A DNA stretch of 64,000 nt from Candidatus Nomurabacteria bacterium (lineage in GTDB: Bacteria > Patescibacteriota > Minisyncoccia > Phycocordibacterales > UBA918). Both the position numbers and the translations under genes were made by a program. Below, in pieces: positions 2,921 to 48,861 of the stretch (its first letter is position 1; each line of letters starts with the position of its first letter). The stretch is from the NCBI GenBank assembly GCA_020631995.1, contig JACKGJ010000001.1, positions 161,753-225,752 on the forward strand. Reading direction: 5' to 3'. The notes beneath the pieces are model-generated. The model was not told the origin of the DNA. It searched no databases and saw only the letters and a program-made list of their open reading frames with translations.

Positions 2921-3038
2921 GCTTCCAAAATCAGGTAAATTCTAGGGCTTCAGAAATTTTGCTCGTCACCGTATGTCTATATACGGCTCGCTCACAAAAT
3001 TTCCTCCAGTCCGTCGAATTTCCTCTAATTTTGAAAGC
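2921..3038 (-). repeat. Structured intergenic hairpin element R1 (subfamily II)
   Basis: Starts 2 nt after the rplT stop and ends before terminator 3045-3073. Positions 2965-2999 are the exact reverse complement of 11661-11695. Outer stem is 2921-2931/3028-3038. Confidence 0.75.
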
Positions 3039-3044
3039 TTTAGC

Positions 3045-3073
3045 AAAACCCCGCGCCACTGGCGCGGGGTTTT
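3045..3073. terminator. Bidirectional intrinsic terminator (rplT / MBL gene)
   Basis: AAAACCCCGCGCC act GGCGCGGGGTTTT. Confidence 0.8.
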
Positions 3074-3108
3074 GTTATTTGTTATTACTATTACTATAGG
3101 ACTGATAC

Positions 3109-4473
3109 TTAAAACTCAATCTCTACCACCTCCTCAGGACCTGGGGCCACAGCATTTACTCCTAAGTAGTCACGGAGACGCTGGACCAAGAAGAGTGATG
3201 AGCGCTCCTCGCCCATCGCCACAAAGACTTGTTTGGCCTTGTCTCCCCCCTTTGCAACAAAGCTTACTAATTGGTCGCGATCAGCGTGGCCAGACCAACC
3301 TTGAATGCTAGCTACTTCTGCTTTCACCACCACTTTTTTCCCATCAATCTTAAGAGAAGGTGCACCGTCTTTTAGTCGTCGCCCAATACTACCGACCGAC
3401 TGGTAACCTACCAGCAACAGAATAGTATTGGGATTAGAGAGAAAATTCTGCTCGTGTTTTAAAATACGCCCACCGTGTGACATTCCACTACCAGCAATTA
3501 TCACCTTAGCTCCCTTGGTGCGATTAATCGCTTCAGAATCAGAAACACTACGGGTTAGTTTGAGTTTAGGAAAATCAAAAATATTGTCCCCTTTCTTAAT
3601 TTGTTCACGCACCGAATCTCTTAAGTACTTAGTCCGTTCTCTATAAATATCAGTCACCTCGATAGCTAATGGTGAATCCAAAAATACTGGTATTGGTTCT
3701 ATCTTGCCACTTTCCACCATATTATTAATTTCAAATAGCATTCCTTGGGTGCGCTCAAGTGAAAAAGCTGGAATAATAAGTGTACCTTTTTGTTTGATGG
3801 TCTTTTCCAGATACCCTTGGAGTAACTCACTTCTTTCCTCCACCTCTTCGTGCTGTCGGTCTCCATACACACTCTCAATCACTAAGTAGTCGTAGTCTTT
3901 GGGAATCACCGGCGGATTAAGCAGTGGTTGCGGGTCGTTTCCGATATCACCTGAAAAAGTGATGCGTCGACCGGCACGCTCTAGAGTAATTGAGGCCGAA
4001 CCAAGAATATGACCCACATCTGTAAATACGGCGGAAACACCATCCTTAAGTGCAAGAGTGGCTTCGTATTCAACCGGTTTCCATAGCCCAAGGGCTGCAG
4101 CAATATCCTCCTCTTTATAAAGTAGCGGAGTACCATACTTTTCTGACTCAAAAGACATCACCTTGAAAGCATCACGCAACATCACCCCAGCCAGCGCGAG
4201 CGTTGGCTCTGTGGAATAAATAGTTCCTTTAAAACCTTCCCGAACAAGCTTTGGAATGCGACCAATATGATCAGCGTGTGCATGGGTAACTAAAAGAAAA
4301 TCCACTACGGCAGGGTCATAAGAAAATGGATTATGATTTTCCTTTTCCTCAAAGCGATCTCCTTGAACCAATCCGCAATCAACTAAGATTCGAGAATCTC
4401 CCGTATCAAGGTGAAAATTTGCTCCAGTAACACTCCCTACCCCTCCATAAAAACCAAGTTTAGATTTACTCAT
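3109..4473 (-). CDS. MBL-fold beta-CASP family metallo-hydrolase (RNA-metabolising ribonuclease-like)
   Basis: HAHADH metal motif and 454 aa with beta-CASP-like architecture (GSGM...GHAD near the C-terminus). Confidence 0.75.
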   Translation of the reverse strand: MSKSKLGFYGGVGSVTGANFHLDTGDSRILVDCGLVQGDRFEEKENHNPFSYDPAVVDFLLVTHAHADHIGRIPKLVREGFKGTIYSTEPTLALAGVMLRDAFKVMSFESEKYGTPLLYKEEDIAAALGLWKPVEYEATLALKDGVSAVFTDVGHILGSASITLERAGRRITFSGDIGNDPQPLLNPPVIPKDYDYLVIESVYGDRQHEEVEERSELLQGYLEKTIKQKGTLIIPAFSLERTQGMLFEINNMVESGKIEPIPVFLDSPLAIEVTDIYRERTKYLRDSVREQIKKGDNIFDFPKLKLTRSVSDSEAINRTKGAKVIIAGSGMSHGGRILKHEQNFLSNPNTILLLVGYQSVGSIGRRLKDGAPSLKIDGKKVVVKAEVASIQGWSGHADRDQLVSFVAKGGDKAKQVFVAMGEERSSLFLVQRLRDYLGVNAVAPGPEEVVEIEF

Positions 4474-4901: not shown

Positions 4902-5078
4902 CGGGTGAGTCGCCAACGTATGTCCCTGGAAAAGTCCAGGTGGGCACCCTATCCGGCTCCCGCTGAAATTGGTCAGACTAGCTTTCCATTCTCATTGTTT
5001 GTCGTGAGTTCAGGCAGCCCTGACAAAAAAATTAACTCGGAACATACGGAAGCGACTCAATTTAAGAATATCATATAC
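4902..5078. ncRNA. Orphan structured RNA candidate (riboswitch-like leader or sRNA), class unknown
   Basis: No credible ORF. An 8-bp closing helix TGAGTCGC (4905-4912) / GCGACTCA (5051-5058) encloses several local hairpins. It is bracketed by terminators at 4874-4901 and 5079-5112. Confidence 0.3.
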
Positions 5079-5112
5079 AAAAAATGACAATACTTAAGTA
5101 TTGTCATTTTTT
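5079..5112. terminator. Bidirectional terminator after ndk
   Basis: AAAAATGACAATACTT/AAGTATTGTCATTTTT perfect palindrome. Confidence 0.75.
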
Positions 5113-5124
5113 GTATCTTAATTC

Positions 5125-8492: not shown

Positions 8493-8529
8493 CAAAAATA
8501 GAACGGGCTAATTGCCCGTTCTATTTTTG
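8493..8529. terminator. Bidirectional terminator (mazF / secY transcript ends)
   Basis: CAAAAATAGAACGGGC taat TGCCCGTTCTATTTTTG. Confidence 0.8.
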
Positions 8530-8543
8530 TTTTAAATTAGTGA

Positions 8544-8699
8544 AATTGGATGCAGTTTCCTACTTAGATTCTGGGTGAGGATTTTTGGATGCAGTTTCGT
8601 CAGCTGGAAGGAGCTTTGCGACGGAGACGTAGGCGAACTACGGCGACCAAGCAAAGCGGCTGAAGCTGGCGGAAATGCGCCAAAAAGACCAGCCAGAAT
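8544..8699 (+). repeat. Structured intergenic hairpin element R2 (subfamily I) with an extra 5' half-copy
   Basis: GGATGCAGTT at 8587 pairs with AAATGCGCC at 8673. Outer stem is ATTCTGG 8568 / CCAGAAT 8693, abutting the secY stop. A second GGATGCAGTT lies at 8548. Confidence 0.75.
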
Positions 8700-9970
8700 T
8701 AGTATTCGCGCATTGAGACTTGAGCATCAACACGGCGCAAAAGATCCAACACCACCGACACCACAATAAGTAGTGCTGTACCACCAATAGCGAGAGCTGC
8801 AATACCTGTCACCATCTGCATACCAAGAGGTAGGACGGCTACTAGACCAAGGAATAACGCTCCCACTAGGGTGAGGCGAGTAATAAGTCCACCTAGGTAC
8901 TCGGCCGTTGCGCTACCAGGACGAAGCCCTGGTACGAATGCACCACTGCGTTGCAGGTTCTTCGATACAGCATCAGGATCAAAGGTCACAGCTGTGTAGA
9001 AGAAGGCAAAGAGGATAACTAGTACGAAATAGACGGCTGCGTAAGCAATTTGGTTATTAAAGAAAACCAAAAGCATTTCAGAAGCCCGAGCTACTCCAGC
9101 AATGTTGAAGCTAGACAGGACGTTCAGGAGCATCTGAGGGAAAAGTAGCATCGACATAGCGAAGATAATCGGTATAACACCTGCCTGATTAAGGCGAAGT
9201 GGTAAGTATGAAGAGGTTCCTCCGTAAGTCTGTCCCCCACGGCTTTGCTTAGCATAGGTGATTGGTACTGGGCGCTCCGCTTCTGTCATTACCACCACGG
9301 CATAGATAGTAGCTAAAGCGATGAGACCAAAGCCAAGATAAAGTGGCAACTGCGCTGGAGTATAACCAAACGCGAGCTGACTTACAGTAGCTGGCAGTCC
9401 GGCTACGATACCAGCGAAGATGATAATTGACACGCCGTTACCAATACCATACTCAGTAACTAGTTCACCGATCCACATAAGTAGAATGGAACCAGCCACA
9501 ATTAAGATTACGTTGGTCATAAAAGCAAAAGTGGACAATCCACTAATTACACCCTGACTCTGAAGTAGAGTAAGGAATCCATAACCTTGTAAAACACCAA
9601 GAGGTAGCGTAAGGAGACGAGAATACTGGGTAAAGCGAGCTCGTCCCGCTTCCCCCTCTTCAGTGTGCATACTCTTAAGTTTTGGTGACATCACTGTCAT
9701 CAACTGCATAATAATTGACGCAGTAATGAACGGCCCAACACCAAGCATTATGATAGACAGGTTAGCCAGTCCACCACCAGAGAAGATGTTTAGAAGTCCC
9801 AAGAATTGATTATTCTCGAAAAATTGCTGCAATACTACCGCATCGACTCCAGGAATAGGAATGGTCGATAGGGCTCTGAAGATGAATAGCGCCCCGAATA
9901 CAAACAGTAGACGATTTCGAATACTCTCATCGGTCAGCGCTATTTTCAGTTTATGTAGGAATTTATTCAT
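8699..9970 (-). CDS. secY: Preprotein translocase subunit SecY
   Basis: 423-aa polytopic protein with SecY motifs (GGGLANLSIIMLGVGPFITASI). Confidence 0.95.
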   Translation of the reverse strand: MNKFLHKLKIALTDESIRNRLLFVFGALFIFRALSTIPIPGVDAVVLQQFFENNQFLGLLNIFSGGGLANLSIIMLGVGPFITASIIMQLMTVMSPKLKSMHTEEGEAGRARFTQYSRLLTLPLGVLQGYGFLTLLQSQGVISGLSTFAFMTNVILIVAGSILLMWIGELVTEYGIGNGVSIIIFAGIVAGLPATVSQLAFGYTPAQLPLYLGFGLIALATIYAVVVMTEAERPVPITYAKQSRGGQTYGGTSSYLPLRLNQAGVIPIIFAMSMLLFPQMLLNVLSSFNIAGVARASEMLLVFFNNQIAYAAVYFVLVILFAFFYTAVTFDPDAVSKNLQRSGAFVPGLRPGSATAEYLGGLITRLTLVGALFLGLVAVLPLGMQMVTGIAALAIGGTALLIVVSVVLDLLRRVDAQVSMREY

Positions 9971-11605: not shown

Positions 11606-11626
11606 ACACCTTGTGATTTAAACTTA

Positions 11627-11734
11627 GGAAATTGGATGAAATCCGACGGGCTGGAGAAAGTTTTGTGAGCGAGCCGTATATAGACATACGGTGACAAGCA
11701 AAACTTTTGAAGCCCTAGGATTTCGCCGATTTCA
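11627..11734 (+). repeat. Structured intergenic hairpin element R3 (subfamily II) between rplF and rplR
   Basis: GGATGAAATCC...GGATTTCGCC middle stem. The 35-nt core 11661-11695 is identical (reverse complement) to 2965-2999. Confidence 0.75.
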
Positions 11735-11740
11735 TATTGT

Positions 11741-12274
11741 TTAAACAGCTTTCTTACCTTGCTTACGAATAATATATTCACCCTGATAGCGAATACCCTT
11801 GCCCTTGTAAGGCTCTGGCTTCTTCACCTTGCGTACGTCAGCCGCAAATTGGCCAATGGCTTCCTTGTCGACTCCCGTTACTGTCACGACACCCTTTTCT
11901 ACCACTACGTTAACTCCCTCAGGAATCTCTTTTTCTACCGGATGAGAGAATCCCATAAGAAGTACAAGCTTGTTGCCTTTCACTTCAGCACGGTAACCGA
12001 CTCCTTCGATTTCTAAAACCTTTTTGAAACCTTCGGTAACTCCGGTCACCATATTGCGAGCGTGCGCAGCGTAAGTACCCCACAGGGCCTTAGCTACAAC
12101 ACTACCCTCTTTTGGAGAGAAGGTAATAACGTTCCCTTCCATCTTAAGTTCAACATCATCTTTAATCTCGCGAGACAAAGAAGTGTTTCCCTTTTTCACA
12201 GTCAAGATACCACCTTCGAAAGTAGCTTCGACGCCGGCTGGCAGTATTACTGGTTGTTTTCCTAATCTAGACAT
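11741..12274 (-). CDS. rplF: 50S ribosomal protein L6
   Basis: MSRLGKQPVILPAGVE..; ATG at 12274 preferred. Confidence 0.95.
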   Translation of the reverse strand: MSRLGKQPVILPAGVEATFEGGILTVKKGNTSLSREIKDDVELKMEGNVITFSPKEGSVVAKALWGTYAAHARNMVTGVTEGFKKVLEIEGVGYRAEVKGNKLVLLMGFSHPVEKEIPEGVNVVVEKGVVTVTGVDKEAIGQFAADVRKVKKPEPYKGKGIRYQGEYIIRKQGKKAV

Positions 12275-12276
12275 AA

Positions 12277-12663
12277 TTACCAAATCTTAAACAACTGTTC
12301 GCCACCGACCTTTGCCTCACGAGCCTCACTGTCAGTGAGAATACCCTTTGGGGTAGAGAGGAAAAGATGGCCTTTGCCGAACTTGACTGGATAAATTTCT
12401 TCGACCTTAGCGTACAAACGACGTCCAGGCTTGGACACACGCTTCACATCACTAATGATGTGCTTGTCTCCTTCATACTTGAGGGTTACCTCAAGAGTTT
12501 TCTTTACGTCTTTGCCCTTAGTCTCAACTGCAGTTAGGTAACCAACAGCAGCAAGCTTCATAGCAATTGCTTCCTTTAATTTTGAGTGCGGGACAGACAC
12601 AACTGTATGTCCGACCGCTCCGGCATTCTTAAGCCGGATGATGAAATCTCCAATGTTATCCAT
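12277..12663 (-). CDS. rpsH: 30S ribosomal protein S8
   Basis: DNIGDFIIRLKNA.. Confidence 0.95.
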   Translation of the reverse strand: MDNIGDFIIRLKNAGAVGHTVVSVPHSKLKEAIAMKLAAVGYLTAVETKGKDVKKTLEVTLKYEGDKHIISDVKRVSKPGRRLYAKVEEIYPVKFGKGHLFLSTPKGILTDSEAREAKVGGEQLFKIW

Positions 12664-12676
12664 ATATGCTTAAGAA

Positions 12677-12862
12677 TTACCAAGAGCTCTTTTTAACTCC
12701 TGGGATAAGTCCCTCGTGCGCGTGCTCTCGAAAACAAATACGACAAAGATCGAAATCTCGCATATATCCATGCTTACGACCGCATTGAACGCAACGGCGA
12801 ACAACCCGACTCTTGTACTTTGGGGTACGCGTAGCGCGTACGATTACTGATGTTCGAGCCAT
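12677..12862 (-). CDS. rpsN: 30S ribosomal protein S14, type Z (zinc-binding, 61 aa)
   Basis: [23 protein letters not shown] with two CxxC pairs. Confidence 0.95.
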
Positions 12863-13096
12863 TTATTTTTTAGGGTTTAGGAAGTAGAAGTTGGAGATTG
12901 AGAGTATATATCGGCAAAACCGCATACATACCCCTCACTCTTAACTCCTCTCCCCTCTTTTTCAGAGTAGTATCGGCTAGATGTGCCGACTTGCTCTGCT
13001 TATAAACAGGGTCCTGGGACCCCTATGAAGTGCCGCCCAAACAGGCATCTATCGGCAAGTCATATTGCTCGCAACATTACCAGAATTTGGGTAAAA

Positions 13097-13130
13097 GTAA
13101 AGCCCCGCGCCAATTGGCGTGGGGCTTTAC
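13097..13130. terminator. Hairpin terminator immediately after rplE, inside the spc cluster
   Basis: GTAAAGCCCCGCGCC aatt GGCGTGGGGCTTTAC, 15 bp with one G.T. Confidence 0.65.
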
Positions 13131-13145
13131 TTAATTGTAAAAAAT

Positions 13146-13694
13146 TTAGGTCGCTACTTCTTCCTTCTGTAACGGAAGTCCTATGTGACGCAAAAACGCT
13201 TCAGCTTCAGTCTTAGTCTTAGCTGTAGTCACAATAGTAATAGCGAGTGAGAAAACATCGCGAATATCTTCGTCGGCGGTCTCAGGGAAAATAGTATGTT
13301 CCTTGATACCGAGAGTGATGTTACCCATATCATCAATTGCGGTAGTCTTAAGGCCACGGAAGTCACGAGTCTGAGGAAGAGCGATATGAATCAACTTATC
13401 GAAAAAGTGATGCATTCGTGCTCCGCGTAAAGTTACTTGGTAACCAATGATGTCACCCTCACGAAGTTTGAAAGACGCAATAGATTGCTTAGCTGGACGT
13501 GGAGATGGCTTCTGGCCAGTGATTTGTGCTAAACGATTGAAGATGGCTTCCTTTTTAGCCTTGTCTTCGATTTTTCCAATACCAACTGACACCACTACTT
13601 TATCTAGTCGTGGAGCCTGCATTACATTGGTGTATCCAAGACTTGACTTCAAAGCCTCAAATGCACCGTCTAGTTTTTCCTTTAGAGTTTTCAT
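13146..13694 (-). CDS. rplE: 50S ribosomal protein L5
   Basis: Position and L5 motifs (NVMQAPRLDKVVVSVGIG). Confidence 0.95.
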   Translation of the reverse strand: MKTLKEKLDGAFEALKSSLGYTNVMQAPRLDKVVVSVGIGKIEDKAKKEAIFNRLAQITGQKPSPRPAKQSIASFKLREGDIIGYQVTLRGARMHHFFDKLIHIALPQTRDFRGLKTTAIDDMGNITLGIKEHTIFPETADEDIRDVFSLAITIVTTAKTKTEAEAFLRHIGLPLQKEEVAT

Positions 13695-13713
13695 ATGCTT
13701 AATAATTGAAAGA

Positions 13714-14019
13714 TTAGATCTCCTTACCGGTTTTCTTGCTTACACGAACCTTCTTGTCCCCCTCTGTCTTGTAGCCAACACGTACTGGCTTTTTTCCATC
13801 TACGAGAGCAACGTTTGAAATATGCACTGGTGCAGCCTTCTTAATTACCTGTCCTTGTGAACGTACTCGCTTGTTTTTCTGGTGACGAGTAATAATGTTT
13901 ACCTCCTCAACCAAAACCTGTTCGGTCTTCGGAAAAACCTTCTCAATTTTGCCGGTCTTACCCTTATCCTTACCAGCGATGATTATGACGTTGTCTCCTT
14001 TCTTAATTTTCATAGACAT
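13714..14019 (-). CDS. rplX: 50S ribosomal protein L24
   Basis: MKIKKGDNVIIIAGKDKGKTGKI KOW motif. The exact start (14013, 14019 or the ORF-track TTG start at 14031) is uncertain. Confidence 0.9.
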   Translation of the reverse strand: MSMKIKKGDNVIIIAGKDKGKTGKIEKVFPKTEQVLVEEVNIITRHQKNKRVRSQGQVIKKAAPVHISNVALVDGKKPVRVGYKTEGDKKVRVSKKTGKEI

Positions 14020-14023
14020 AGGC

Positions 14024-14395
14024 TTAAACAACTTCAGGGGCTAATGAAACAATCTTTTGGTAACCAGCTTCAGCCAGTTCACGAGGAACTGGTCCGAATA
14101 CACGGTTGGCCTTTGGTTCTTTCTTCTCCTTATCAACCAATACAACGGCATTATCGTCGAAGCTCACGTATGAACCATCAACACGTCGGTATGGCTTCTT
14201 TTGACGTACCACTACTCCGTAAACAACATCCTTCTTCTTTACCTGCTTACGAGGTTCAGCTGTCTGTACAGAAAGCACCACCATCTCACCGAGTTCAGCA
14301 TAGCGCTTCCTAGAACCACCAAGTACTTTGAAAACACGGCCCATCTTACCGCCGGAGTTGTCTGTGATTTTAACTATAGTTTGTGGTTGAATCAT
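14024..14395 (-). CDS. rplN: 50S ribosomal protein L14
   Basis: MIQPQTIVKITDNSGGK. Confidence 0.95.
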   Translation of the reverse strand: MIQPQTIVKITDNSGGKMGRVFKVLGGSRKRYAELGEMVVLSVQTAEPRKQVKKKDVVYGVVVRQKKPYRRVDGSYVSFDDNAVVLVDKEKKEPKANRVFGPVPRELAEAGYQKIVSLAPEVV

Positions 14396-14401
14396 AAGCG
14401 A

Positions 14402-14659
14402 TTATTTAGTTAGGAGTGCGAAGCGCTTGCGCTTGCTGATTGGATGAGTCTCTATAATAGAAACTTTTGCTCCGACCGGGGCAGTGTTGCCAGCATCGTG
14501 AACCAAGTACTTCTTGGTTTGACGAATGAACTTCTTGTACTTAGGATGCTTCACGTAACGCTCCACAGCCACAGTACAAGTGTCCTGCATTAAAGAAGCC
14601 ACTACAGTGCCTTCAAACACTCGACCATTGCTATTTTCTGTTTTAATTTCTTTTGCCAT
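14402..14659 (-). CDS. rpsQ: 30S ribosomal protein S17
   Basis: RVFEGTVVASLMQDTCTVAVERYVKHPKYKK. Confidence 0.95.
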   Translation of the reverse strand: MAKEIKTENSNGRVFEGTVVASLMQDTCTVAVERYVKHPKYKKFIRQTKKYLVHDAGNTAPVGAKVSIIETHPISKRKRFALLTK

Positions 14660-14670
14660 ATAAATGAGTT

Positions 14671-14880
14671 TTATTCAGACTTAGCCTTAGGAGATGTGTC
14701 CAAGGTACGAGTCTTTAATTCAGTGAGTGAACGAGCCACATCCTTTCTCGCTTCACGCATCGCTCCCACATCTTTGCCACCGGTACCGAAACGGAAGTTT
14801 CGCAAAACCTCGCGCTTATCCTTTATCAAAGAAGCGAGTTCAGTGTCCTTCATCTTTTTTATTTCATTCATTTTTGCCAT
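14671..14880 (-). CDS. rpmC: 50S ribosomal protein L29
   Basis: MAKMNEIKKMKDTELASLIKDKREVLRNFRF; ATG at 14880 chosen. Confidence 0.9.
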   Translation of the reverse strand: MAKMNEIKKMKDTELASLIKDKREVLRNFRFGTGGKDVGAMREARKDVARSLTELKTRTLDTSPKAKSE

Positions 14881-14893
14881 ATAAATTTGAAGA

Positions 14894-15322
14894 TTACTCA
14901 CCGTCGCGGGCTACGACACGTCCCTTAAGTGGAAGCTTGGCGGTAGCTTTTCGCAATGCCTCGCGAGCAACCACTTCACTAACGCCGTCTACTTCGAATA
15001 AAACTCGACCAGGTGCAACCTCAAACACGAAGTGGTCTGGATCACCCTTACCCTTACCCATCGGAGTTTCAGCTGCCTTCTTAGTGATAGGGCGATCAGG
15101 GAAGATACGAATCCAAACACGACCAGTTTTGCCGAGAGTACGAGAAATCACACGACGCGCAGCTTCAATCTGATTACTACGCACACGTGCTGGGGAAGTA
15201 GCCTTAAGGCCAAATGAACCAAAGGATACAGTAATACCACGAGTATCCGGACGCGCTAGCTTAGCTTCGCTCTTACGAGCTACTTGCCACTTTCGGTGCT
15301 TTACTTTTTTAGGAAACAACAT
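14894..15322 (-). CDS. rplP: 50S ribosomal protein L16
   Basis: MLFPKKVKHRKWQ.. Confidence 0.95.
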   Translation of the reverse strand: MLFPKKVKHRKWQVARKSEAKLARPDTRGITVSFGSFGLKATSPARVRSNQIEAARRVISRTLGKTGRVWIRIFPDRPITKKAAETPMGKGKGDPDHFVFEVAPGRVLFEVDGVSEVVAREALRKATAKLPLKGRVVARDGE

Positions 15323-15330
15323 ATTAAATA

Positions 15331-16050
15331 TTATGAGTTACGAGATGGTGCTTTTGACTCCTCACGAGCCGGAGCATCAATAGCCGCACGACGATCAGTG
15401 AAAATGTCTCCCCGGTAAATCCACACCTTAATACCAATTACTCCATAAGGAAGGTTGGCGCGGATACGAGCAAAGTCGATGTCAGCACGTAGAGTCTGAA
15501 GAGGGATACGTCCCTTCTTTAGTTCTTCAACACGAGACATATCAGCTCCACCAAGACGACCAGACATCATAATACGTACACCTTGTACGTCACGATTAGC
15601 CATCACCTTCTCGATAGTCTGCTTAAGTACACGACGGAACTGCATACGCTTTTCAAGGCCTTCTGCTACCATCTGTCCAACTAGCTGTGCAGACACTTCT
15701 GGAGAACGAATTTCTTCGATATCAAGCTTGATTTCAGGCTTTTCGATAAGCTTTAGGGTACGAAGCAACATATCAATCTCCTTCTTAAGCTTCACTGCTC
15801 CCTCTCCGCTTCGCCCGATAACGAGCCCTGGACGAGCACTCTTCACAATAATGCGAATTTCTTTTTCATCGCGCTCAATCTCCACCACATCAACAGACAT
15901 ACCCTTCAACTTCTTGAAAAGGAATTTACGGATAGCTGCGTCAGTACGCAAGTATTCTCGAAAACGCTTAGGGTCAGTAGTGAACCAACGACTGCGCCAG
16001 TCACGGTTGATACCAATGCGTTGTATGAATGGGTGAGCTACGTGAGTCAT
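15331..16050 (-). CDS. rpsC: 30S ribosomal protein S3
   Basis: KH and S3-C motifs (HPFIQRIGINRDWRSRWF). Confidence 0.95.
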   Translation of the reverse strand: MTHVAHPFIQRIGINRDWRSRWFTTDPKRFREYLRTDAAIRKFLFKKLKGMSVDVVEIERDEKEIRIIVKSARPGLVIGRSGEGAVKLKKEIDMLLRTLKLIEKPEIKLDIEEIRSPEVSAQLVGQMVAEGLEKRMQFRRVLKQTIEKVMANRDVQGVRIMMSGRLGGADMSRVEELKKGRIPLQTLRADIDFARIRANLPYGVIGIKVWIYRGDIFTDRRAAIDAPAREESKAPSRNS

Positions 16051-16051
16051 A

Positions 16052-16369
16052 TTATTTTAATTCAACGGTTATGTGGCTAGAACGACGGTTGATTGGGGAC
16101 GCTGAACCGCGAGCACGAGGCATAAAACGAGTCATAACAGTTCCCTTGTCCACTGCAACCTTAGCAATCTTCAAACTCTCTACTGTACGACCAGTGTCCT
16201 TGGCATTAGCTACAGCAGAATTGATTACCTTAATGAAAGGTCCTGAAGCTTTCTTATCTACGAAAGACAAGTGCTTAATAGCGTCATTTACCTTCTTGCC
16301 ACGAACAAGGTCAGCGAGTAGTCGCACTTTACGAGGTGATTGACGGTAATTCTTAAGGATTGCTTTCAT
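16052..16369 (-). CDS. rplV: 50S ribosomal protein L22
   Basis: YRQSPRKVRLLADLVRGKKV. Confidence 0.95.
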   Translation of the reverse strand: MKAILKNYRQSPRKVRLLADLVRGKKVNDAIKHLSFVDKKASGPFIKVINSAVANAKDTGRTVESLKIAKVAVDKGTVMTRFMPRARGSASPINRRSSHITVELK

Positions 16370-16375
16370 ATAAAA

Positions 16376-16714
16376 CTATTTCTTAGTGTCACTTGACTTA
16401 GCGGCCTTAGCAGAAGCAATTTCTGCCTCCTTCTTCTTGATGTCCAGTTCCTTCTGCATCTTACCTCCGTGACGAAGGAACTTGGTAGTTGGAGAGAATT
16501 CACCGAGACAGTGACCCACCATTTCTTCAGAAACCATTACTTCGATGTGACTCTTGCCGTTATGTACACCAAAAGTGAATCCCACCATTTCTGGTGAAAT
16601 CATCGCATCGCGAGACCAGGTCTTAATGACTCCAGCTTGGTCTGGCTTCTTTCCGGCAATCTTCTTAAGAAGACGCTCGTCTAGATATGGGCCCTTATAT
16701 AGTGATCGTGACAT
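16376..16714 (-). CDS. rpsS: 30S ribosomal protein S19 with a Lys-rich C-terminal tail
   Basis: [28 protein letters not shown]. Confidence 0.95.
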
Positions 16715-16758
16715 ATAGATAAAACGCTAAGGCTGGCCTGAAATAAGGAAGTTTGTTT

Positions 16759-16860
16759 AAAATCAATGAGATGCAAGGCGGATGAGGAAAATAATGCGAG
16801 GTGAACTTAACGTTCAGAGAGCTTTATTTTCCGACATCCAACGTAGCAGGTCGTGATTTA
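16759..16860 (+). repeat. Structured intergenic hairpin element R4 (subfamily III) in the rplB-rpsS spacer
   Basis: Core 16784-16832 is GAGGAAAATAATGCGAGGTGAAC..GTTCAGAGAG..TTATTTTCC. It resembles 29378-29429 and 28628-28661. Confidence 0.7.
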
Positions 16861-17037
16861 AACTGACTTCTAAGTCAGAAGCCCGTGTGGATGAAGGTAA
16901 CGGCCTACCCCACACGAGTTCCCGACAAGTAGTGATTTGAGCTGTGCCGACCCGCCCTGCCAGGGGCTTTCGGGCATCAGTTCGGAACGGGGGCTATAGT
17001 ACGGGATTCGGTAGAAAAAGTCAACTAAATACATAAC

Positions 17038-17073
17038 AAGAAAACCCGCAAGCTTTTGCCTGCGGGTTTTCTT
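17038..17073. terminator. Hairpin terminator directly after rplB, inside the S10 cluster
   Basis: AAAACCCGCAAGC tttt GCCTGCGGGTTTT with A/T flanks. Confidence 0.7.
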
Positions 17074-17095
17074 GTCTAGAACTCAAATCTTGAGT

Positions 17096-17956
17096 CTATT
17101 TTTTACTTGTCATTCGTGGGCCTAACTTGCGTCTCTTAACAATAAACTTGTTAGATTGCTTCTTCGGACGACGAGTTTTCTGACCCTTACCGGTCGGACG
17201 ACCCTGAGCCGTACGAGAGCGCTTGTGTCCACGTGGCTGTACACCTTCTCCACCTCCGTGTGGGTGGTCTACGGCGTTCTTAGCAGTACCACGAGTCTTA
17301 GGACGAAGTCCCATATGACGAGCGCGTCCTGCCTTACCAATGTTCACTAGACGATTCTCTTCGTTTGAAACTTCACCAATGGAAGCCCAAGCGGTAGAGA
17401 TGATCTTGCGAATTTCAGTTGAAGGTAGACGAACCTGTGTGTAACCAGCGTCCTGCGCCACTACTTCAGCGTAGTTACCAGCAGAACGAGCGATACGAGC
17501 ACCAGCTCCTGGCTTCAACTCCACTGCGTACACAAATGTACCAACTGGAATCTTAGCAAGAGGGAGGCGGTTACCTAGAGTTGGGCGAGCATCTTCTGAG
17601 ACAGTGAAACTATCCCCTACCTGCATACGCTGTGGCACTAGGACATAACGTCGTTCACCATCGGCATAAAGCGCTAGGGCAATGAAACCTGTTCGGTACG
17701 GATCGTACTCGATAGTTTCAATTCGAGCTGGAATATCCTTCTTGTTGAAACGAAAGTCAATTTCACGATACTTACGCTTGTTACCGTTACCACGATACCA
17801 AACGGTAGTGCGTCCCTGACTGTTACGACCACCGGTTGAACGGCGACCCTTTACCAAAGCCTTGTGCGGAGTACTGGAAGTCGAAGACAATTTCTTCTTG
17901 TATTCGATTACGGTCATCCCGCGACGACCTGGTGATGTTGGTTTGTGTTTTTTCAT
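17096..17956 (-). CDS. rplB: 50S ribosomal protein L2
   Basis: HPHGGGEG motif, 286 aa with a basic C-terminal tail. Confidence 0.95.
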   Translation of the reverse strand: MKKHKPTSPGRRGMTVIEYKKKLSSTSSTPHKALVKGRRSTGGRNSQGRTTVWYRGNGNKRKYREIDFRFNKKDIPARIETIEYDPYRTGFIALALYADGERRYVLVPQRMQVGDSFTVSEDARPTLGNRLPLAKIPVGTFVYAVELKPGAGARIARSAGNYAEVVAQDAGYTQVRLPSTEIRKIISTAWASIGEVSNEENRLVNIGKAGRARHMGLRPKTRGTAKNAVDHPHGGGEGVQPRGHKRSRTAQGRPTGKGQKTRRPKKQSNKFIVKRRKLGPRMTSKK

Positions 17957-18002
17957 AATTTTACTTTGCGGGTACTACTGACCCATAACTGTAATTAGTA
18001 AT

Positions 18003-18362
18003 TTAGATCAATGAAATGCTATCGCCCTTCTTAAGGTATACGTAAGCTTTTTTCATTCCGTGTTGTGTCATCACTCGACCTTTCGAGCGAGACTTGAACT
18101 GCCTTGGACTTTTGTTGACGATGTTTATTCTCACCGGCGTCACACCATAGAAAGTCTTTACGGCCTCACGTACGTCAAATTTCGATGCAGAACGAGCTAC
18201 TTCAAAAGAGTAGATGTTCCTTTCATTCATCTTCATCGCCTTTTCGGTGATGCGAGGAGAACGAAGTACGAAAGAGAGGTCGCGGGCTACATCAGCACCG
18301 CCCGTGCTAACAGCTTTCTTTTCTTTCTTAGTGGTGGTTTTTTTCTGACTAAAGAGTGCCAT
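18003..18362 (-). CDS. rplW: 50S ribosomal protein L23 with a Lys/Thr-rich N-terminal extension
   Basis: Position and VLRSPRITEKA..YSFEV motif. Confidence 0.9.
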   Translation of the reverse strand: MALFSQKKTTTKKEKKAVSTGGADVARDLSFVLRSPRITEKAMKMNERNIYSFEVARSASKFDVREAVKTFYGVTPVRINIVNKSPRQFKSRSKGRVMTQHGMKKAYVYLKKGDSISLI

Positions 18363-18381
18363 ATTAATTAAGTTATTGTTT

Positions 18382-19047: not shown

Positions 19048-19064
19048 ATTATTGAATTACAAAT

Positions 19065-19694: not shown

Positions 19695-19875
19695 TCAATC
19701 AGGCTTACATTAATAAATGTCTCTGACCAGAAACGGGTAATAAAAAACACGTTCCAGGACACAGCCACAAAACGCGGATAGTGCCCATTGGTTCTCAAGG
19801 ATGCAAGCACCCCGTCATCGAACTTAGGTCTTTAAGACCGCTGTACTATATAGTTTTTCAGCAAAAAAGCAAGGG

Positions 19876-20757: not shown

Positions 20758-20760
20758 AGT

Positions 20761-31233: not shown

Positions 31234-31254
31234 AAAGTTTAGTTAAACAATCTA

Positions 31255-44490: not shown

Positions 44491-44596
44491 AGGAAAATTG
44501 TATCACGCTTTACTGGCAAAATTCCCAAACGACAAAGCTAGGTGCTCATTTTGGAGTTTTGTGCCTCCTTTTTCCTCCTAGCACTGGTTCGCTTTG

Positions 44597-44742
44597 CTCA
44601 CAACGCGTTTCCTGACTCAGGTCAGGACCGGAGGGAACAAGAAACTATTCTTGTTCTGCCCACCTAACGCTTGCTCGTTTCACTCACAACGCGTTTCCTG
44701 ACTCAGGTCAGGACCGGAGGGAACAAGAAACTATTCTTGTTC
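44597..44742. repeat. Tandem duplication (two 60-bp near-identical units, 86-bp period) carrying nested palindromes
   Basis: Positions 44597-44656 and 44683-44742 are identical. Each holds AACGCGTT, CCTGAC tcag GTCAGG and a GAACAAGAA acta TTCTTGTTC hairpin. Confidence 0.85.
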
Positions 44743-46218
44743 CCTCCACTCGATGAACTGATAATTATCAGAAGTCTTTGGGGTCAAAGGTGGTGGGTCG
44801 ATAGCTAGGTCACGGTCATAGTAGTCGTAGCGATACTCAAAGCCATTGCAGTACACACCTCCGGAGCATACCCATTTAGTACCAACGCGACCATTCGAGA
44901 CCACTGTTCCATTAGTGGTCAGTGAATTGCGGTACATATAGTCACTCATCGAATTTTGAATGCGCACGTAATCAGGATTAGAATCAGCAGAGTTACTATT
45001 ACTAACATAGTAGTATGGCCGATGGAACTTTCCTTTCTGCGCCAAAAAAATACCGTTTATCGACATATTATCTGGTACATCTAGACCAATATTGATGTTT
45101 TCTTCGGCGATTAGTAGGAGGCCTGAGTCTTCATTAGCATAAGTGAGGTTACCAACAATAACTACTCTTGGATCTGTCGTGGAGTCAGGTGCGGCAGCGG
45201 CAACTGTCACTCGTCCATTTATCACGCCCTCCACCCACACATTGTCCTCAAAGAAAATAACACTACAAGAAGAAGGTATAGAGTACGTCCCCACTGTCGT
45301 TGCACTGTTCAAAAAGTTTTTACTGTGACCCCAAGCATTACCTTTGGCCTTACTCGACTTTGCCTTTTTTAGTGTATATGTACCATTTGAGTTAAATACA
45401 ACATAATAACCAGCCTCACCGGAAGGTCCATAGTATTGACCACCTGAATTGGTAGCACGATCTTTTATGTCAGAAAGGTCTACCGTTACTCCTGTGAAAC
45501 TAACTGGTGGTACAGACCATTGCCACAAATCAGAACCATCCCCGTCACCAAACACTCCATTGACACTGGTCCAATTACTAGCAAATTGTGGACTTGCAGT
45601 ACAAATATCAAGGTAGTAGCACCATGAGCTCGTTTGTCCGCTAGTCACTTTAGAGTTATTGAGTCCATCCATACGCACAAAGCCATTGGAATGATATGGT
45701 CCATAGATAATACGATCAGGACCGGCCCAGACATTGGCATTAACGATGTGTGAGAACTCTGCTACGTTGGGCCTAGCATAACGAGCATAGACTATTCTTT
45801 CTATATTTGGTTCTTTGGTTGTATAACCTGTCGAAGTAATATCAATAGAAGTCACCGCTCCACACGCTAGGTTGCCATCCACCTCCAAAGAATACTCCCC
45901 AATTACATCGCCCTCTGGGTCACTAAACGGAACTACATAAGGGCCAGCTTCTCCAGTACCGTTTTGGATATCATCAGGATGGTGAGCTAGAAACCATTTG
46001 TAGTAGTTAAGCCCAGCCTCTGCAATTTGAAGGGCTTGCTCACTATTTAATTTGGCATTAGATATTTTCGAGCCAGTAATAGTAAAACCCATAAAGGCTG
46101 TAAAAATAGTGAAGAACACGGCCCCAAACACTAAGAGTAATACCACTAAGTAGCCCCTAGAAAGATTATGGTTCGCTACTTCGTTGTGTTGATCTGAACT
46201 TTTAAATTTAAATGTCAT
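44731..46218 (-). CDS. PilX-like / pilus-associated protein with an N-terminal hydrophobic anchor (495 aa)
   Basis: N-terminus ..SRGYLVVLLLVFGAVFF is pilin-like but lacks Glu5. Sits in the operon with the prepilin-like genes. Confidence 0.55.
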   Translation of the reverse strand: MTFKFKSSDQHNEVANHNLSRGYLVVLLLVFGAVFFTIFTAFMGFTITGSKISNAKLNSEQALQIAEAGLNYYKWFLAHHPDDIQNGTGEAGPYVVPFSDPEGDVIGEYSLEVDGNLACGAVTSIDITSTGYTTKEPNIERIVYARYARPNVAEFSHIVNANVWAGPDRIIYGPYHSNGFVRMDGLNNSKVTSGQTSSWCYYLDICTASPQFASNWTSVNGVFGDGDGSDLWQWSVPPVSFTGVTVDLSDIKDRATNSGGQYYGPSGEAGYYVVFNSNGTYTLKKAKSSKAKGNAWGHSKNFLNSATTVGTYSIPSSCSVIFFEDNVWVEGVINGRVTVAAAAPDSTTDPRVVIVGNLTYANEDSGLLLIAEENINIGLDVPDNMSINGIFLAQKGKFHRPYYYVSNSNSADSNPDYVRIQNSMSDYMYRNSLTTNGTVVSNGRVGTKWVCSGGVYCNGFEYRYDYYDRDLAIDPPPLTPKTSDNYQFIEWREQE

Positions 46219-46831
46219 ATTCTTTTAAGTTTCGAAGTGATGCACTAGAGCGTAAATGATATTTGCCCGGCTCTCTAATAGGATCAACATTTACCACCAT
46301 TGCCACATCAATATGCCTCACTTCACTCACACCAGTCCCTGACAACTCTACTCCCTGATTGTTATAGTAGGTAAACATTATCACTCCCTCAAGGTCATTA
46401 TGTACATATTCAGAGATTGTTTCCGTACGACTTGGTTCACTAGCATAGACAGCCGGAATTCCGCTGGACTCATATATGTATTTAAATAGAGTTTGATCAA
46501 CTATCTCGTAGCGCACCAGCTCTACACTATTATCTCTATCAATGTCACTATAAAACTCCACACTAGAAGTAGCGCGATTCACTAATGGAAAAGCACCATT
46601 GTCGGAGTAGGTCATTTCACGCAGGTCACGAACTAAAAGTTCAATACCCTTTCGAGCACTGTCTACCTGATAAGCCTGAGCTATGGTGTAGGCATTGTAG
46701 CGATAAAAAGAGGATATCACCGTCATAATGGCGATAGACAATATACTGAAGAGGGCGAGGACTACTACAGTTTCCACTAGAGTCATCCCTCTTGATTGTG
46801 TGTATTTGTTATTTAAAAAAGTAAGTCGCAT
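46208..46831 (-). CDS. Prepilin-type N-terminal cleavage/methylation domain protein (minor pilin or pseudopilin-like)
   Basis: Leader MRLTFLNNKYTQSRG then MTLVETVVVLALFSI (G/xTLxE signature). Confidence 0.75.
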   Translation of the reverse strand: MRLTFLNNKYTQSRGMTLVETVVVLALFSILSIAIMTVISSFYRYNAYTIAQAYQVDSARKGIELLVRDLREMTYSDNGAFPLVNRATSSVEFYSDIDRDNSVELVRYEIVDQTLFKYIYESSGIPAVYASEPSRTETISEYVHNDLEGVIMFTYYNNQGVELSGTGVSEVRHIDVAMVVNVDPIREPGKYHLRSSASLRNLKEYDI

Positions 46832-46836
46832 AAATA

Positions 46837-48576
46837 TTAACTACTCGGACTTAGGGTAATGACTGTCATTACATTTCCATTTACTGTGATGGTACCAGAG
46901 TAAGAAGTGTAACCGGCTTGTGAAACATCAACAGTGAAACTATCCAGAAGCGGTAAGTCACCAAAGAAAGCTTGACCATAAGCAGAAGCAGACACTGTCT
47001 CACTATAACCTGTGCCTGAAAGCTGAACTGTTGCCCCACTTAACGGCAAGCCATTTTGGTCGGTCACTGTAATATGCAGCGTACGAGTTGTATGTGGAAC
47101 CAACTCAAAGGCCAAAATAGTATTTGCACCTGGGGCAATGGTATAAGGCAAAACTCCACTCACTTCTTTAATATCGTAACCTTCTGTCGCACCGTCGACG
47201 GTAATTGTGTAAACATCCCACTCTAATGATAACGGGCTAAGACCGTCCGCATCAGTAATAGTGGAATCTTGATATTTCAGAACCCCACTACCAATGGTCT
47301 TGGTACCAGTCAAATCAAAGGTAAGGTCCGCAATCGGTGGTTCAGATTCAACATAACCAAGTCGCCAACTTTCTATTAAAGGTGTAGCAAGCGGGTCAGA
47401 ACTATCCAAATTGGCGCGGAGGGCAAGGCGTGGGAAAGTACTGCTTGCCAAATGAGAAATGTCGACAGAGCCAGACGTGAAGCCAACGGAGTTTCCTGGT
47501 AACAGCGTGTCATCTACCAAAGTATAAACACCGCCGGACTCTTGATAGAGACTCACACTTGCTGAGGTGCTGGTCGAAGTTGTAACACTCCACTCAAACG
47601 TATCCCAGGAAGAGAATTCGGCAGGAGCAGTGGTGGTCGAGTAGGCATATCCAGATGAATAATAGCTACCCTCTATTGAAGTCAGACTGACACTTCCACC
47701 TGACACCTCTGTATTATTCATCTGTGCTAATAAATCTGAACTGGTGAATTCATCAATAAATTCTTGTACTACCGGTTCTCCAAAGGCTCTTAAAGTAAGG
47801 TCTGCCAATTTATCAATACTAAAATACATTGTAGTGATAGTGCTAGAGGCTACTGCCACATGTGGCGGACTAGGATCAGGATTCTCTACTGTCACGTCGT
47901 AAGTTTGGTCGGTGGAATAACCACTTTTCGTAACAGTAATCTGGTAACCGCCACCCGGTGGCACCCCTGGCACAATCACACGTCCCGATACATTAGTACT
48001 TACCGTCACGTCCACAGTACTGGTGGCCAAGGCATCGTTGTAGATTCTGACGGAAGCACCATCTACTGCTTCGACCACAGAGTCAAATACATTTACTATG
48101 AGAGTACCTCCTCCGGAAGAAGTCTCCATACCTTTTGGTGATATGTCAGTAACAAGGGAGAGATTTTTTTCTTCTCCTCTAATTTCCCAAGTGTATTCAA
48201 CCTTTATCCGCTTACTATCTTCAAGTATGCCGTTCTCGTCACTACCTTCAAGGCCGTCCTCAGGCCTATCGACATACAGCACTAACACACGCTCGGTATA
48301 ATCAATGCCATTTAAAGTGCTAGTGCTAGTTTGCGGTATTGCTCCCGACGGCACTCCGTCTACCGTCCCAATGGCGTCATAGTTCAAAGAGCGGATGTAT
48401 TCCATTTTAGACAGTGCCAAGGAACGAGCACCAGTTTCCGCCTTACTGTGTCCAATAAGTTCAACCATCAACTTCACACCACTCAGTAGTCCACCAAAAA
48501 ACAAAAGAAGGATTGCGGACGCAATCACCACTTCAACAAGTGAGAAACCTCCAGAACGAGTTCTACCTATTACCAT
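46837..48576 (-). CDS. Large prepilin-type protein (579 aa) with repeated beta-sandwich-like segments
   Basis: MVIGRTRSGG then FSLVEVVIASAILLLF. Recurrent V..V.D..G.P..GA.V motifs resemble carboxypeptidase-regulatory-like domains. Confidence 0.7.
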   Translation of the reverse strand: MVIGRTRSGGFSLVEVVIASAILLLFFGGLLSGVKLMVELIGHSKAETGARSLALSKMEYIRSLNYDAIGTVDGVPSGAIPQTSTSTLNGIDYTERVLVLYVDRPEDGLEGSDENGILEDSKRIKVEYTWEIRGEEKNLSLVTDISPKGMETSSGGGTLIVNVFDSVVEAVDGASVRIYNDALATSTVDVTVSTNVSGRVIVPGVPPGGGYQITVTKSGYSTDQTYDVTVENPDPSPPHVAVASSTITTMYFSIDKLADLTLRAFGEPVVQEFIDEFTSSDLLAQMNNTEVSGGSVSLTSIEGSYYSSGYAYSTTTAPAEFSSWDTFEWSVTTSTSTSASVSLYQESGGVYTLVDDTLLPGNSVGFTSGSVDISHLASSTFPRLALRANLDSSDPLATPLIESWRLGYVESEPPIADLTFDLTGTKTIGSGVLKYQDSTITDADGLSPLSLEWDVYTITVDGATEGYDIKEVSGVLPYTIAPGANTILAFELVPHTTRTLHITVTDQNGLPLSGATVQLSGTGYSETVSASAYGQAFFGDLPLLDSFTVDVSQAGYTSYSGTITVNGNVMTVITLSPSS

Positions 48577-48673
48577 TCTATATATAGTACAACGTCGGCG
48601 TCGTTATTTTGGCTACACTCACTTGATAAAGATTAGAGTCATACACTTTTCTTTCACTTCCAACTTCAATTTT

Positions 48674-48861
48674 CTAAAACTTTTAAAAGTGGATGCACCA
48701 CACGGGCACTTCCGTTTTCATAGTCGAGCAAGCTCTCCTTGAAAACTAGGTCGCAGTTGTGCTGGTTGGAGGAATTTTGGCGACAGAGCCTTAGAACAAA
48801 CTAAGGTGACCAAGACAAAATTATGAAACCAGTGCAAATGCGCCACTTTTAAAAGTTTTAG
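48674..48861 (+). repeat. Composite structured hairpin element R9 (subfamily I with an internal insertion), 3' of pilC
   Basis: A 17-bp perfect outer stem (48674-48690 / 48845-48861) overlaps the pilC stop. GGATGCA is at 48691, GGTCGCAGTT at 48749 and AAATGCGCC at 48836. The core closely matches R5 by eye. Confidence 0.8.

Follow-up and report, generated by a model that had tools for sequence, protein, structure and literature searches.

Why should hairpin repeats that lie in transcribed operons all face the same way relative to the genes beside them, and which of their two strands is the one that matters? These questions are raised by a 64,000-nt stretch of a Candidatus Nomurabacteria genome (contig JACKGJ010000001.1, positions 161,753 to 225,752; hereafter the window), in which a palindromic repeat with a GGATG-containing arm recurs beside ribosomal-protein and other genes. 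Copies were located by repeat finding, direct sequence reading, and profile searches. The window holds 10 full hairpin repeats, 7 of class A and 3 of class B, together with one partial arm and one internally deleted remnant. In 10/10 full copies the strand that carries GGATG (the GGATG strand) lies opposite the mRNA of the abutting gene. The first-pass annotation had listed nine copies, all of which are present, with the GGATG arm on the + strand in seven and flipped at 2918-3045 and 31108-31240. It had overlooked a degenerate class A copy (29222-29335), a partial arm (8530-8560), and the remnant (22412-22465), and it had not recognized their mobility, the Patescibacteria origin of the genome, or the division of the copies into two classes.

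Class A repeats are approximately 125 to 135 nt long, with the ends GAAATTGGATGCAGTT ... AAATGCGCCGATTTC and the core TGGAGGAAnTTTTG..GAGCC-loop-GGTGAC..CAAAAT. Class B repeats are approximately 110 nt long, with the core GAGGAAAATAAT.CGAGGTGAAC-loop-GTTCA..GAG. Both classes have an outer AAATTGGATG/CC.ATTT stem and a GGAAAAT...ATTTTCC-GAA module. Relatives were compared as 8-kb loci (given numbers of the type L001; 477 kb of loci in all), and over all loci there were 70 nonredundant copies, ranging in size from 110 to 135 nt and containing no conserved open reading frame (ORF). Like transposable elements of the miniature inverted-repeat type (MITEs, below approximately 300 bp), they are small, noncoding, multicopy, and dispersed. 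We read them as two related classes of nonautonomous mobile palindromic repeats.

The hairpin is conserved, with massive covariation. Each copy is a single long imperfect hairpin, which on the GGATG strand makes a near-continuous helix of approximately 60 bp joined by G.U pairs and purine-purine juxtapositions; the latter lie in a 5'-GGA/3'-GA loop, which is invariant, and in loops of the form GA..RAG/GYGAC.RA. In the complement, the G.U pairs and purine loops turn into A.C and pyrimidine-pyrimidine mismatches, at a cost of approximately 15 kcal/mol. RNAalifold analysis of 30 copies yielded 37 pairs, 31 of them with compensatory changes. When covariation was assessed, 91.4% of cells were paired, compared with 71.0% in shuffles, and there were 226 double-change cells, compared with 71 in shuffles, a level matched by 0 of 500 shuffles. 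As a control, the 3' partner was slid by 1 to 3 columns, and pairing was then 35 to 53%.

The pairing constraint acts on the GGATG strand only. This strand was the more stable in the nine window copies folded (by 5.5 to 26 kcal/mol), in all 25 genome copies, and in 50 of 50 nonredundant full-length class A copies, for which the mean folding energies were -53.6 kcal/mol (GGATG strand) and -38.3 kcal/mol (complement). The consensus energy of the alignment was -37.3 kcal/mol for the GGATG strand and -18.0 kcal/mol for the complement. The 26 consensus pairs of the complement were a strict subset of the 37 on the GGATG strand, with no complement-specific pairs. Over these 37 pairs, the 50 class A copies contained 146 G.U and 18 A.C combinations. 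Columns that toggle between G-C and A-U do so via G.U and never via A.C (for example, GU in 11 copies, AU in 10, and GC in 9; or CG in 18, UG in 7, and UA in 4), and the T.G juxtaposition of GGATGCA/TGCGCC was found in 37 of the 50 copies. Taken by itself, the lower stem has a folding energy of -9.7 kcal/mol on the GGATG strand and is not formed by the mRNA strand. A preference of the folding program for G.U pairs was ruled out as the cause, because the union of the pairs from both strands contained no complement-only pair and a strand-neutral alignment of the arms agreed.

The most conserved positions of the element are unpaired purines: the 3' GA was present in 50/50 class A copies and the 5' GGA in 48/50. 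Conservation of the 3' GA is independent of the pattern used to scan for copies, of which it is not part. The apical internal loop consists of GA..RAG opposite GYGAC.RA, and these purine loops may form tandem sheared G.A pairs. A canonical kink-turn was considered and set aside; by eye, one subfamily (GAGCGAG/UGACGAG) is kink-turn-like in layout and the other subfamilies are not.

Within the window itself the asymmetry is smaller. A strand-neutral, arm-against-arm alignment gave 30 G.T and 15 A.C juxtapositions (p = 0.036), the isolated helix mismatches numbered 8 and 2, and the minimum-free-energy folds contained 38 G.U pairs on the GGATG strand and 16 on the complement, divided into 33 and 11 in class A and 5 and 5 in class B. 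Over the class B copies, the GGATG strand folded better in 10/10, with 27 G.U and 11 A.C. The first-pass annotation had reported wobble pairs concentrated on the GGATG strand, about a dozen against one. It was right about the direction, which the count over aligned class A copies and the comparison of folding energies bear out in relatives; its ratio is too high for the window by itself. It had also suggested that the strand that folds is the antisense one. As the site of the pairing constraint, this is supported by the G.U route, the subset structure, and the invariant purines, all of which suit an RNA and single-stranded DNA equally.

Strand-biased mutation was considered as a source of the G.U excess. 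On the sense strand, 4-fold degenerate sites gave A/G = 2.07 and T/C = 2.25, ratios that are near-symmetric and lean slightly the wrong way, and strand-biased mutation is therefore rejected. The distribution of rare variants leads to the same rejection. A.C occurred in at most 2 copies per column (18 cells), and G.U accounted for 17 cells in columns with no more than 2 copies and for 111 cells in columns with more than 5 copies. Because among rare, presumably recent changes G.U is as frequent as A.C while only G.U variants spread, inserted copies decay symmetrically. We infer that the GGATG-strand fold is needed for propagation of the lineage rather than defended at each inserted copy.

In order to determine how widely the orientation holds, genes were called in the relatives from log odds of codon usage, in a model for which long ORFs of the loci served as the training set; the caller was verified on the window and on locus L022, where atpB, atpE, and atpF were recovered correctly. 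After removal of duplicates, the census comprised 60 class A and 10 class B copies. The gene beside the 3' end of the GGATG strand was on the opposite strand in 52 class A copies; adding the rpmB copy of the window, not detected by the caller, brings the antisense total to 53 of the 56 class A copies that were callable. The two-sided binomial probability is about 1e-12 by our own arithmetic, in a census that includes orthologous copies in related genomes and represents approximately 35 distinct gene sites. Where the foot of the hairpin could be cleanly located, it overlapped the stop codon or lay within about 4 nt of it. In convergent spacers, where a gene ends on either side, the opposite-strand gene was the one abutted in 11 of 12 cases. 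Both orientations were found inside single 8-kb loci, tracking gene direction (L021, L024, L027, and L061). Transcription, and not replication, is thus the correlate of orientation, as the first-pass annotation had claimed; a replication-linked orientation is rejected by these flips and by those at rplT and rpmB in the window. Near window positions 51900 to 52400, the genes switch from the - to the + strand and the cumulative GC skew reaches its minimum. This region could be a replication origin, in which case rplT and rpmB would be head-on.

Three class A copies are exceptions to the rule: one is in sense orientation between a membrane-protein gene and a tRNA (L012), and two lie in divergent spacers (L031 and L061). 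Two further apparent sense copies were dismissed. That in L022 reflected a gene-calling error, the true genes being atpB, atpE, and atpF on the other strand, and that in L014 is next to a cold-shock gene, which it abuts. In L012 (3004-3429) and L022 (4499-5431), there are long spurious ORFs on the wrong strand that pass through a repeat or alongside it, and one of them is in part a translated tRNA. Class B is less consistent, with 7 antisense and 3 sense copies, so the strict rule is broken in relatives. The sense copies lie just upstream of rpsG (L020), rpmI (L021), and rpsS (L032), where the strong strand is in the mRNA; at the orthologous rplB-rpsS spot, the class B copies of the window and of L032 are in opposite orientations.

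The abutted genes are mostly highly expressed housekeeping genes. Ribosomal proteins are encoded by 19 of the 44, and the others include EF-Tu, EF-G, NusG, SecY, ATP synthase subunits, a cold-shock protein, gyrase, ribonucleotide reductase, and pilus genes. One class A copy (L007) is antisense to a 16S rRNA operon. At the same locus (658-2774), an ORF for a LAGLIDADG homing endonuclease adjoins the 16S rRNA gene, with the class A repeat downstream; rRNA introns with such an ORF are common in bacteria of the candidate phyla radiation (CPR).

Copies have been gained and lost between close relatives. Locus L047, which is 82 to 95% identical to the window, has an intact class A copy in the tuf-rpsJ spacer, with 92% identity to the copy at rplT in the window. 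Of this copy, just the arms of the outer stem are left in the window, so that window positions 22412 to 22465 represent an internally deleted remnant. A further copy separates rplC from rplD in L047, and in the window the spacer there measures 17 nt. L021 has additional copies in the infC-rpmI-rplT operon; the site after rpmB holds a class A copy in the window and a class B copy in L027; and the rpsL-rpsG spacer is empty in L027. Such presence/absence polymorphism at orthologous sites is a property of MITEs. Tandem copies are present in L009 and L026. In L020 (5989-6241), the rpsL-rpsG spacer contains adjacent class A and class B copies in opposite orientations, where the window has B and then A, both antisense. 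In L021 (3364-3520), approximately 150 nt is inserted after infC compared with the window, and a remnant of the old infC 3' end (gggggcttgatttaag) remains downstream of the new stop.

Most copies have TA..TA flanks, and the outermost part of the stem differs in sequence from copy to copy. The junction is a TA and usually belongs to a stop codon, either TAA or TAG: the genes abutted end in TAA in 35 cases, in TAG in 10, and in TGA in none, compared with 237, 105, and 50 for other genes (p = 0.005). Among the window ORFs that were scanned (a subset), we found no transposase domain and no RAYT (Y1 HUH) transposase. In the 477 kb of loci, a search for an ORF with half-elements on its two sides found none. 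The surroundings of the copies examined yielded no reverse transcriptase, HUH enzyme, or tyrosine enzyme, and the window has just an RNase H-like gene.

Our preferred reading, which we hold tentatively, is that these are mobile palindromic repeats that need one folded strand to propagate and that have been filtered by selection to keep that strand out of mRNAs. Propagation would pass through a stage in which the GGATG strand is single stranded, as DNA or as RNA, and is recognized through the invariant purine loops. Insertion would be unoriented, because the target, TA, is palindromic. Selection would then purge copies that place the strongly folding, GGAGG- and AUG-bearing strand in the mRNAs of essential operons; the putative harms are a roadblock, attenuation, a target for double-strand RNases, and a spurious ribosome-binding site. 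The copies that persist would be those whose mRNA version is the weakened complement.

Several observations weigh against this proposal. The sense class B copies directly upstream of rpsG, rpmI, and rpsS in three genomes fold, with their flanks, at -48 to -59 kcal/mol, which indicates that strong hairpins in operon mRNAs are tolerated at least sometimes. The bias also holds in convergent spacers, where a strong 3' hairpin should do little harm, so that oriented insertion or an antisense-directed function fits at least as well. Neither the scan of window ORFs nor the 477 kb of loci revealed a transposase or a partner element with matching ends. Furthermore, the TA..TA flanks are palindromic, and a target duplication is indistinguishable from a terminal inverted repeat. 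A DDE cut-and-paste enzyme is the usual partner of TA-targeting MITEs, and such an enzyme would not require a full-length, strand-specific hairpin. The sense class B copies and the 11:1 convergent bias in particular weaken selective filtering as an explanation and keep two rivals alive, oriented mobility and an antisense barrier.

The first of these rivals, which we regard as possible but unlikely, is that mobility is intrinsically oriented and strand specific, the GGATG strand being the substrate, or else an RNA whose complementary DNA (cDNA) is the complement. Integration or excision would depend on which DNA strand is exposed by transcription. In one version, cDNA of the GGATG RNA is pasted into the exposed nontemplate strand of heavily transcribed genes; in another, copies are lost by excision whenever the active strand is the nontemplate strand. 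The tie between orientation and transcription even in convergent spacers, the enrichment of copies at highly transcribed genes, and the precise junctions at the TA of stop codons all fit such a mechanism, as does a one-folded-strand constraint at the level of propagating lineages; the invariant purine loops suggest that a protein recognizes a folded single strand. There is a precedent in the attC sites of integrons, of which one folded DNA strand, the bottom strand, is used (PMC5027507, PMC2727003). Against it stand the failure to find a reverse transcriptase, HUH enzyme, or tyrosine enzyme near the copies examined, the absence of attC core sites from all 100 copy-strands, and the three class A and three class B exceptions. 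By simple IS200/IS605 logic, the active strand is the sense (lagging-template) strand, and this prediction is the opposite of what was observed.

A related idea, which we put forward with considerable doubt, is that the molecule doing the work is the GGATG strand itself, single and structured, and read by a dedicated protein via the invariant GGA/GA and tandem-GA loops. In the boldest version that we propose, it is an RNA that spreads in the manner of a bacterial SINE (short interspersed element), its poorly folding complementary cDNA being pasted into the exposed nontemplate strand. If true, this would account in one step for the antisense orientation, the bias to busy genes, the one-strand constraint, and the symmetric decay after insertion. 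The milder version that we propose is a CPR-specific, antisense-directed insulator system.

The second rival, to which we give a low probability, is a barrier beneficial to the host, in which a polar hairpin at the 3' end of a busy gene is strong only in RNA made against the gene. It would stop or destabilize antisense and convergent read-through transcripts, and the A.C-weakened version would let sense transcription through. Selection in situ on antisense RNA would account for the way the copies face, for the asymmetry between G.U and A.C, and for their placement directly at gene 3' ends. A layout of A-tract, hairpin, and T-tract agrees with a barrier, and the lower stem beside the T-tract forms just on the GGATG strand (-9.7 kcal/mol versus none). 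Of the 12 convergent spacers, 11 have the strong strand turned toward the convergent gene that reads into them, and highly expressed functions are enriched among the abutted genes (19/44 ribosomal proteins). The T-tract, however, is weak and equal on the two strands, with means of 3.8 and 3.7 T residues over the 8 nt that follow the stem and with 5 or more T residues in just 4/23 and 6/29 copies, and a terminator scan flagged 0 copies. Presence varies among close relatives, one copy having been deleted in the window, and some class B copies lie in sense orientation inside operons. The equal frequency of rare G.U and rare A.C is contrary to strong in situ selection on each copy. No dedicated antisense promoters were evident.

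Third, the element might act in the mRNA, which we consider improbable. Here, the weakened mRNA hairpin would work as a 3' stabilizer or as a loop-out between stop and start codons for translational coupling, the A.C mismatches being deliberate, a possibility that the first-pass annotation had raised. Every copy is cotranscribed, those after rplT, rpsJ, rpmB, and secY lying between stop and terminator. The base of the hairpin falls at the stop codon, the ribosome-binding site of the next gene lies just past the other end, and the mRNA version still folds at approximately -38 kcal/mol. Such a role nevertheless predicts G.U on the mRNA strand and intolerance of A.C, and the data are the reverse (146 versus 18). 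In addition, there are 0 consensus pairs specific to the mRNA strand, the conserved loops become pyrimidine-pyrimidine mismatches in the mRNA, and copies are gained and lost among relatives. Chance orientation in a window whose genes are mostly on the - strand, combined with strand-biased mutation making G.T, is excluded: the seven + copies could be chance if the window were considered alone, and its mismatch count is marginal (p = 0.036), but class A is antisense in 53/56 copies across many genomes with flips within loci, the 4-fold transition ratios are near-symmetric and lean the wrong way, and rare G.U and A.C stand at 17 and 18.

Among known systems, the repeats come closest in behavior to MITEs of the ERIC, Correia, and RUP types and to REPs, since they lie 3' of ORFs, are cotranscribed, and vary in presence. 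They share with ERIC/IRU of enterobacteria, Correia/NEMIS of Neisseria, and RUP, BOX, and SPRITE of pneumococcus a length of 100 to 150 bp, a noncoding and dispersed nature, and a single long hairpin. MITEs of the ERIC, Correia, and RUP types are also intergenic beside or inside operons, are cotranscribed, and differ in presence between strains, and Correia elements target TA. In the repeats described here, however, the ends are variable and covarying and the invariant part consists of internal unpaired purines, the constrained strand is absent from the mRNA, the host range is Patescibacteria, and no partner insertion sequence is known. Orientation-dependent mRNA effects have been reported for ERIC (summarized in PMC3049150). 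The orientation bias of BOX, RUP, and SPRITE is approximately 61%, mirroring the coding bias (PMC3049150), which is mild compared with approximately 95% for class A.

REP, BIME, and REPIN sequences are palindromic and lie mostly right after ORFs, between codirectional or convergent genes, often within 20 bp of stop codons (PMC3733652). In REP stems, G.T pairs are common and have been read as evidence of function in the mRNA form, and the RAYT transposases (IS200/IS605 type) that mobilize these sequences act on single-stranded hairpin DNA (PMC3733652). REPs resemble our repeats in being palindromic and 3' of ORFs, but here the G.T pairs are on the strand opposite the mRNA. Moreover, REPs are 20 to 40 bp long with a GTAG or CGTC tag, and the repeats here are 110 to 135 nt long without a consistent tag; near an end, GTAG was found in 9/50 copies and CGTC in 5/50, at no fixed position.

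The attC site of integrons is an imperfect palindrome whose folded bottom strand, which is not mRNA-like, is the functional substrate (PMC5027507, PMC2727003, PMC5371416). It is similar to these repeats in length, in its place right after an ORF, in its fixed orientation, and in conserving structure and unpaired features over sequence. The combination of one folded strand and fixed orientation is seen here too (53/56 in class A), as a functional analogy only, though the nearest one to a hairpin that folds just on the non-mRNA strand. The core sites R'' (RYYYAAC) and R' (GTTRRRY) occurred together in none of the copy-strands. Unlike attC sites, the repeats are closely related in sequence and belong to no cassette array; their neighbors are ribosomal-protein operons and essential genes in conserved order, and the window contains no integrase. 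Identity with attC sites or REPs is therefore rejected, the core sites and tags being absent.

Bidirectional intrinsic terminators likewise have an A-tract, a hairpin, and a T-tract at gene 3' ends, and a polar version could arise from the G.U/A.C asymmetry. The stem here is approximately 60 bp, versus 5 to 15 bp in intrinsic terminators, and the T-tract is short, with approximately 3.8 T residues per 8 nt. Many copies lie between cotranscribed genes, and canonical GC-rich terminators stand separately after several copies. Since the two strands have T-tracts that are alike and too weak, and the scan flagged no copy, we reject an intrinsic terminator as the identity of the repeat.

To determine the host range, we used a degenerate 43-bit pattern of the class A core, which matched 6/7 window class A copies and 0 in shuffles. 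A scan of one genome per species, covering 185,579 species, returned 25 places in 23 loci, all in metagenome-assembled genomes (MAGs) of Patescibacteria: Saccharibacteria, UBA918, UBA6201, Kaiserbacteria, Paceibacterota, Minisyncoccia, and a pond MAG labeled just "bacterium." A metagenome scan with the same pattern added 36 matches. The contigs with an exact match to the S10 protein are metagenomic, and one of them is 100% identical to window positions 12019 to 22520. The Saccharibacteria loci have the same gene order as the window, with 68 to 80% nucleotide identity in the ribosomal operons, and this suggests a Saccharibacteria-like source for the window. As far as sampled, the family is confined to Patescibacteria. 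No class A core match was found in viral contigs or among PLSDB plasmids, and carriage by a plasmid or phage is rejected on that basis. An identity with cyanobacterial repeats (Nostoc SDR or Nezha type) was dropped because the S10 and L20 proteins are not cyanobacterial and the related loci are all from Patescibacteria. At the gathering score, Rfam 15 gave a single match in the window, a tRNA-Gly, and none for the repeats; at E-values up to 10, there were merely chance-level matches to miRNAs and leaders. We found no published description of such repeats in CPR bacteria.

Pfam analysis placed rplT and rpmB on the + strand of the window and secY, rplR, rplF, rpsS, rplB, rpsJ, rpsG, rpsL, and a pilC-like T2SSF gene on the - strand. 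After rplT, rpsJ, rpmB, and secY, the stop codon comes first, then the copy, and then a GC-rich terminator hairpin distinct from it. These copies are thus certainly transcribed, and the mRNA contains the CATCC complement. The strand given below for each copy is that of its GGATG arm. The class A copy at 2918-3045 (-) begins inside the rplT TAA stop codon (2917-2919) and is followed by a terminator hairpin at 3046-3076. The class A copy at 8566-8700 (+) is flush with the secY stop (8699), with an mRNA hairpin at approximately 8497-8530 afterward, and is adjoined by the partial class A 5' arm of a second copy at 8530-8560 (+; TTTAAATTAGTGAAATTGGATGCAGTT). At 11611-11745 (+), a class A copy fills the rplF-rplR spacer, the rplF TAA stop (11741-11743) lying within its terminal TTTAAA and the rplR ribosome-binding site about 3 nt beyond its other end. 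The class B copy at 16751-16862 (+) is in the long rplB-rpsS spacer, 38 nt upstream of rpsS.

In the class A copy at 21893-22024 (+), the last three paired bases are the rpsJ TAA stop (22019-22021), and the mRNA continues into a terminator hairpin at 21838-21868. The class A remnant in the tuf-rpsJ spacer (22412-22465), to which no strand was assigned, retains the outer-stem arms TAAAGCTT...ATTTGAGAAAGTTT. The class B copy at 28580-28710 (+) abuts the rpsG stop (28707) in a spacer convergent with a kinase-like gene on the + strand (27940-28524). The rpsL-rpsG spacer holds two copies in tandem, the degenerate one of class A at 29222-29335 (+) and one of class B at 29348-29460 (+), the latter flush with the rpsL stop codon (29459). 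The class A copy at 31108-31240 (-) follows rpmB (30830-31111, +) and has a terminator hairpin downstream, near 31262-31290. The end of the last copy, a class A repeat at 48733-48861 (+), is overlapped by the TAA stop of the pilC-like gene (48858-48860).

Several other features of the window were noted. Two tandem copies, 87% identical, of an 86-nt unit (44574-44745) are bounded by the start of tpiA on one side and by the stop of a 495-aa gene without annotation on the other; each has two short hairpins (CCTGACTCAGGTCAGG and GAACAAGAAACTATTCTTGTTC), and the unit has no Rfam match. There are four perfect palindromes with arms of 21 to 29 bp (25379-25422, 61088-61149, 54367-54415, and 5075-5116), which are probably bidirectional terminators. 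One of them is loopless and flush with the fusA stop, where L027 has a class A repeat instead, and another overlaps the 3' end of the tRNA-Gly gene (61141-61212, -). The rplB-rpsS spacer is 380 nt long, so that the S10 operon appears to be split. Within it (16863-17095) are a strong terminator-like hairpin (17076-17035, -) and a promoter-like site (17024-16996, -). A 150-nt stretch of this spacer is 82% identical to L032, above the flanking genes (approximately 73%), and a 54-aa ORF at 16870-17034 has no Pfam match. The S10 protein (22019-22411) has a lysine-rich N-terminal extension of approximately 25 residues (MATATKKTVKRTTKKKEVATPDSQ), and calling its ORF from the first start adds 7 codons upstream of the likely ATG.

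The comparison of G.U with A.C is the standard strand test for conserved hairpins, and repeats in operons normally point to the mRNA strand. The present family, which is well sampled, strongly covarying, and distributed among CPR lineages, gives the opposite answer, with an orientation consistency of approximately 95%. The family has apparently not been described before, and its strand logic is unusual. Either the repeats have a form that matters as single-stranded DNA or as antisense RNA, or selection shapes how poorly the mRNA folds. For practical purposes, the repeat is usable as a strain-typing marker and is a likely source of assembly breaks and false ORF calls in CPR MAGs. In Patescibacteria, genomes are tiny, mobile elements have seldom been described, and genetics is almost lacking; a repeat that abounds in their ribosomal-protein operons offers access to the transcription, RNA turnover, and mobile-DNA biology of CPR bacteria.

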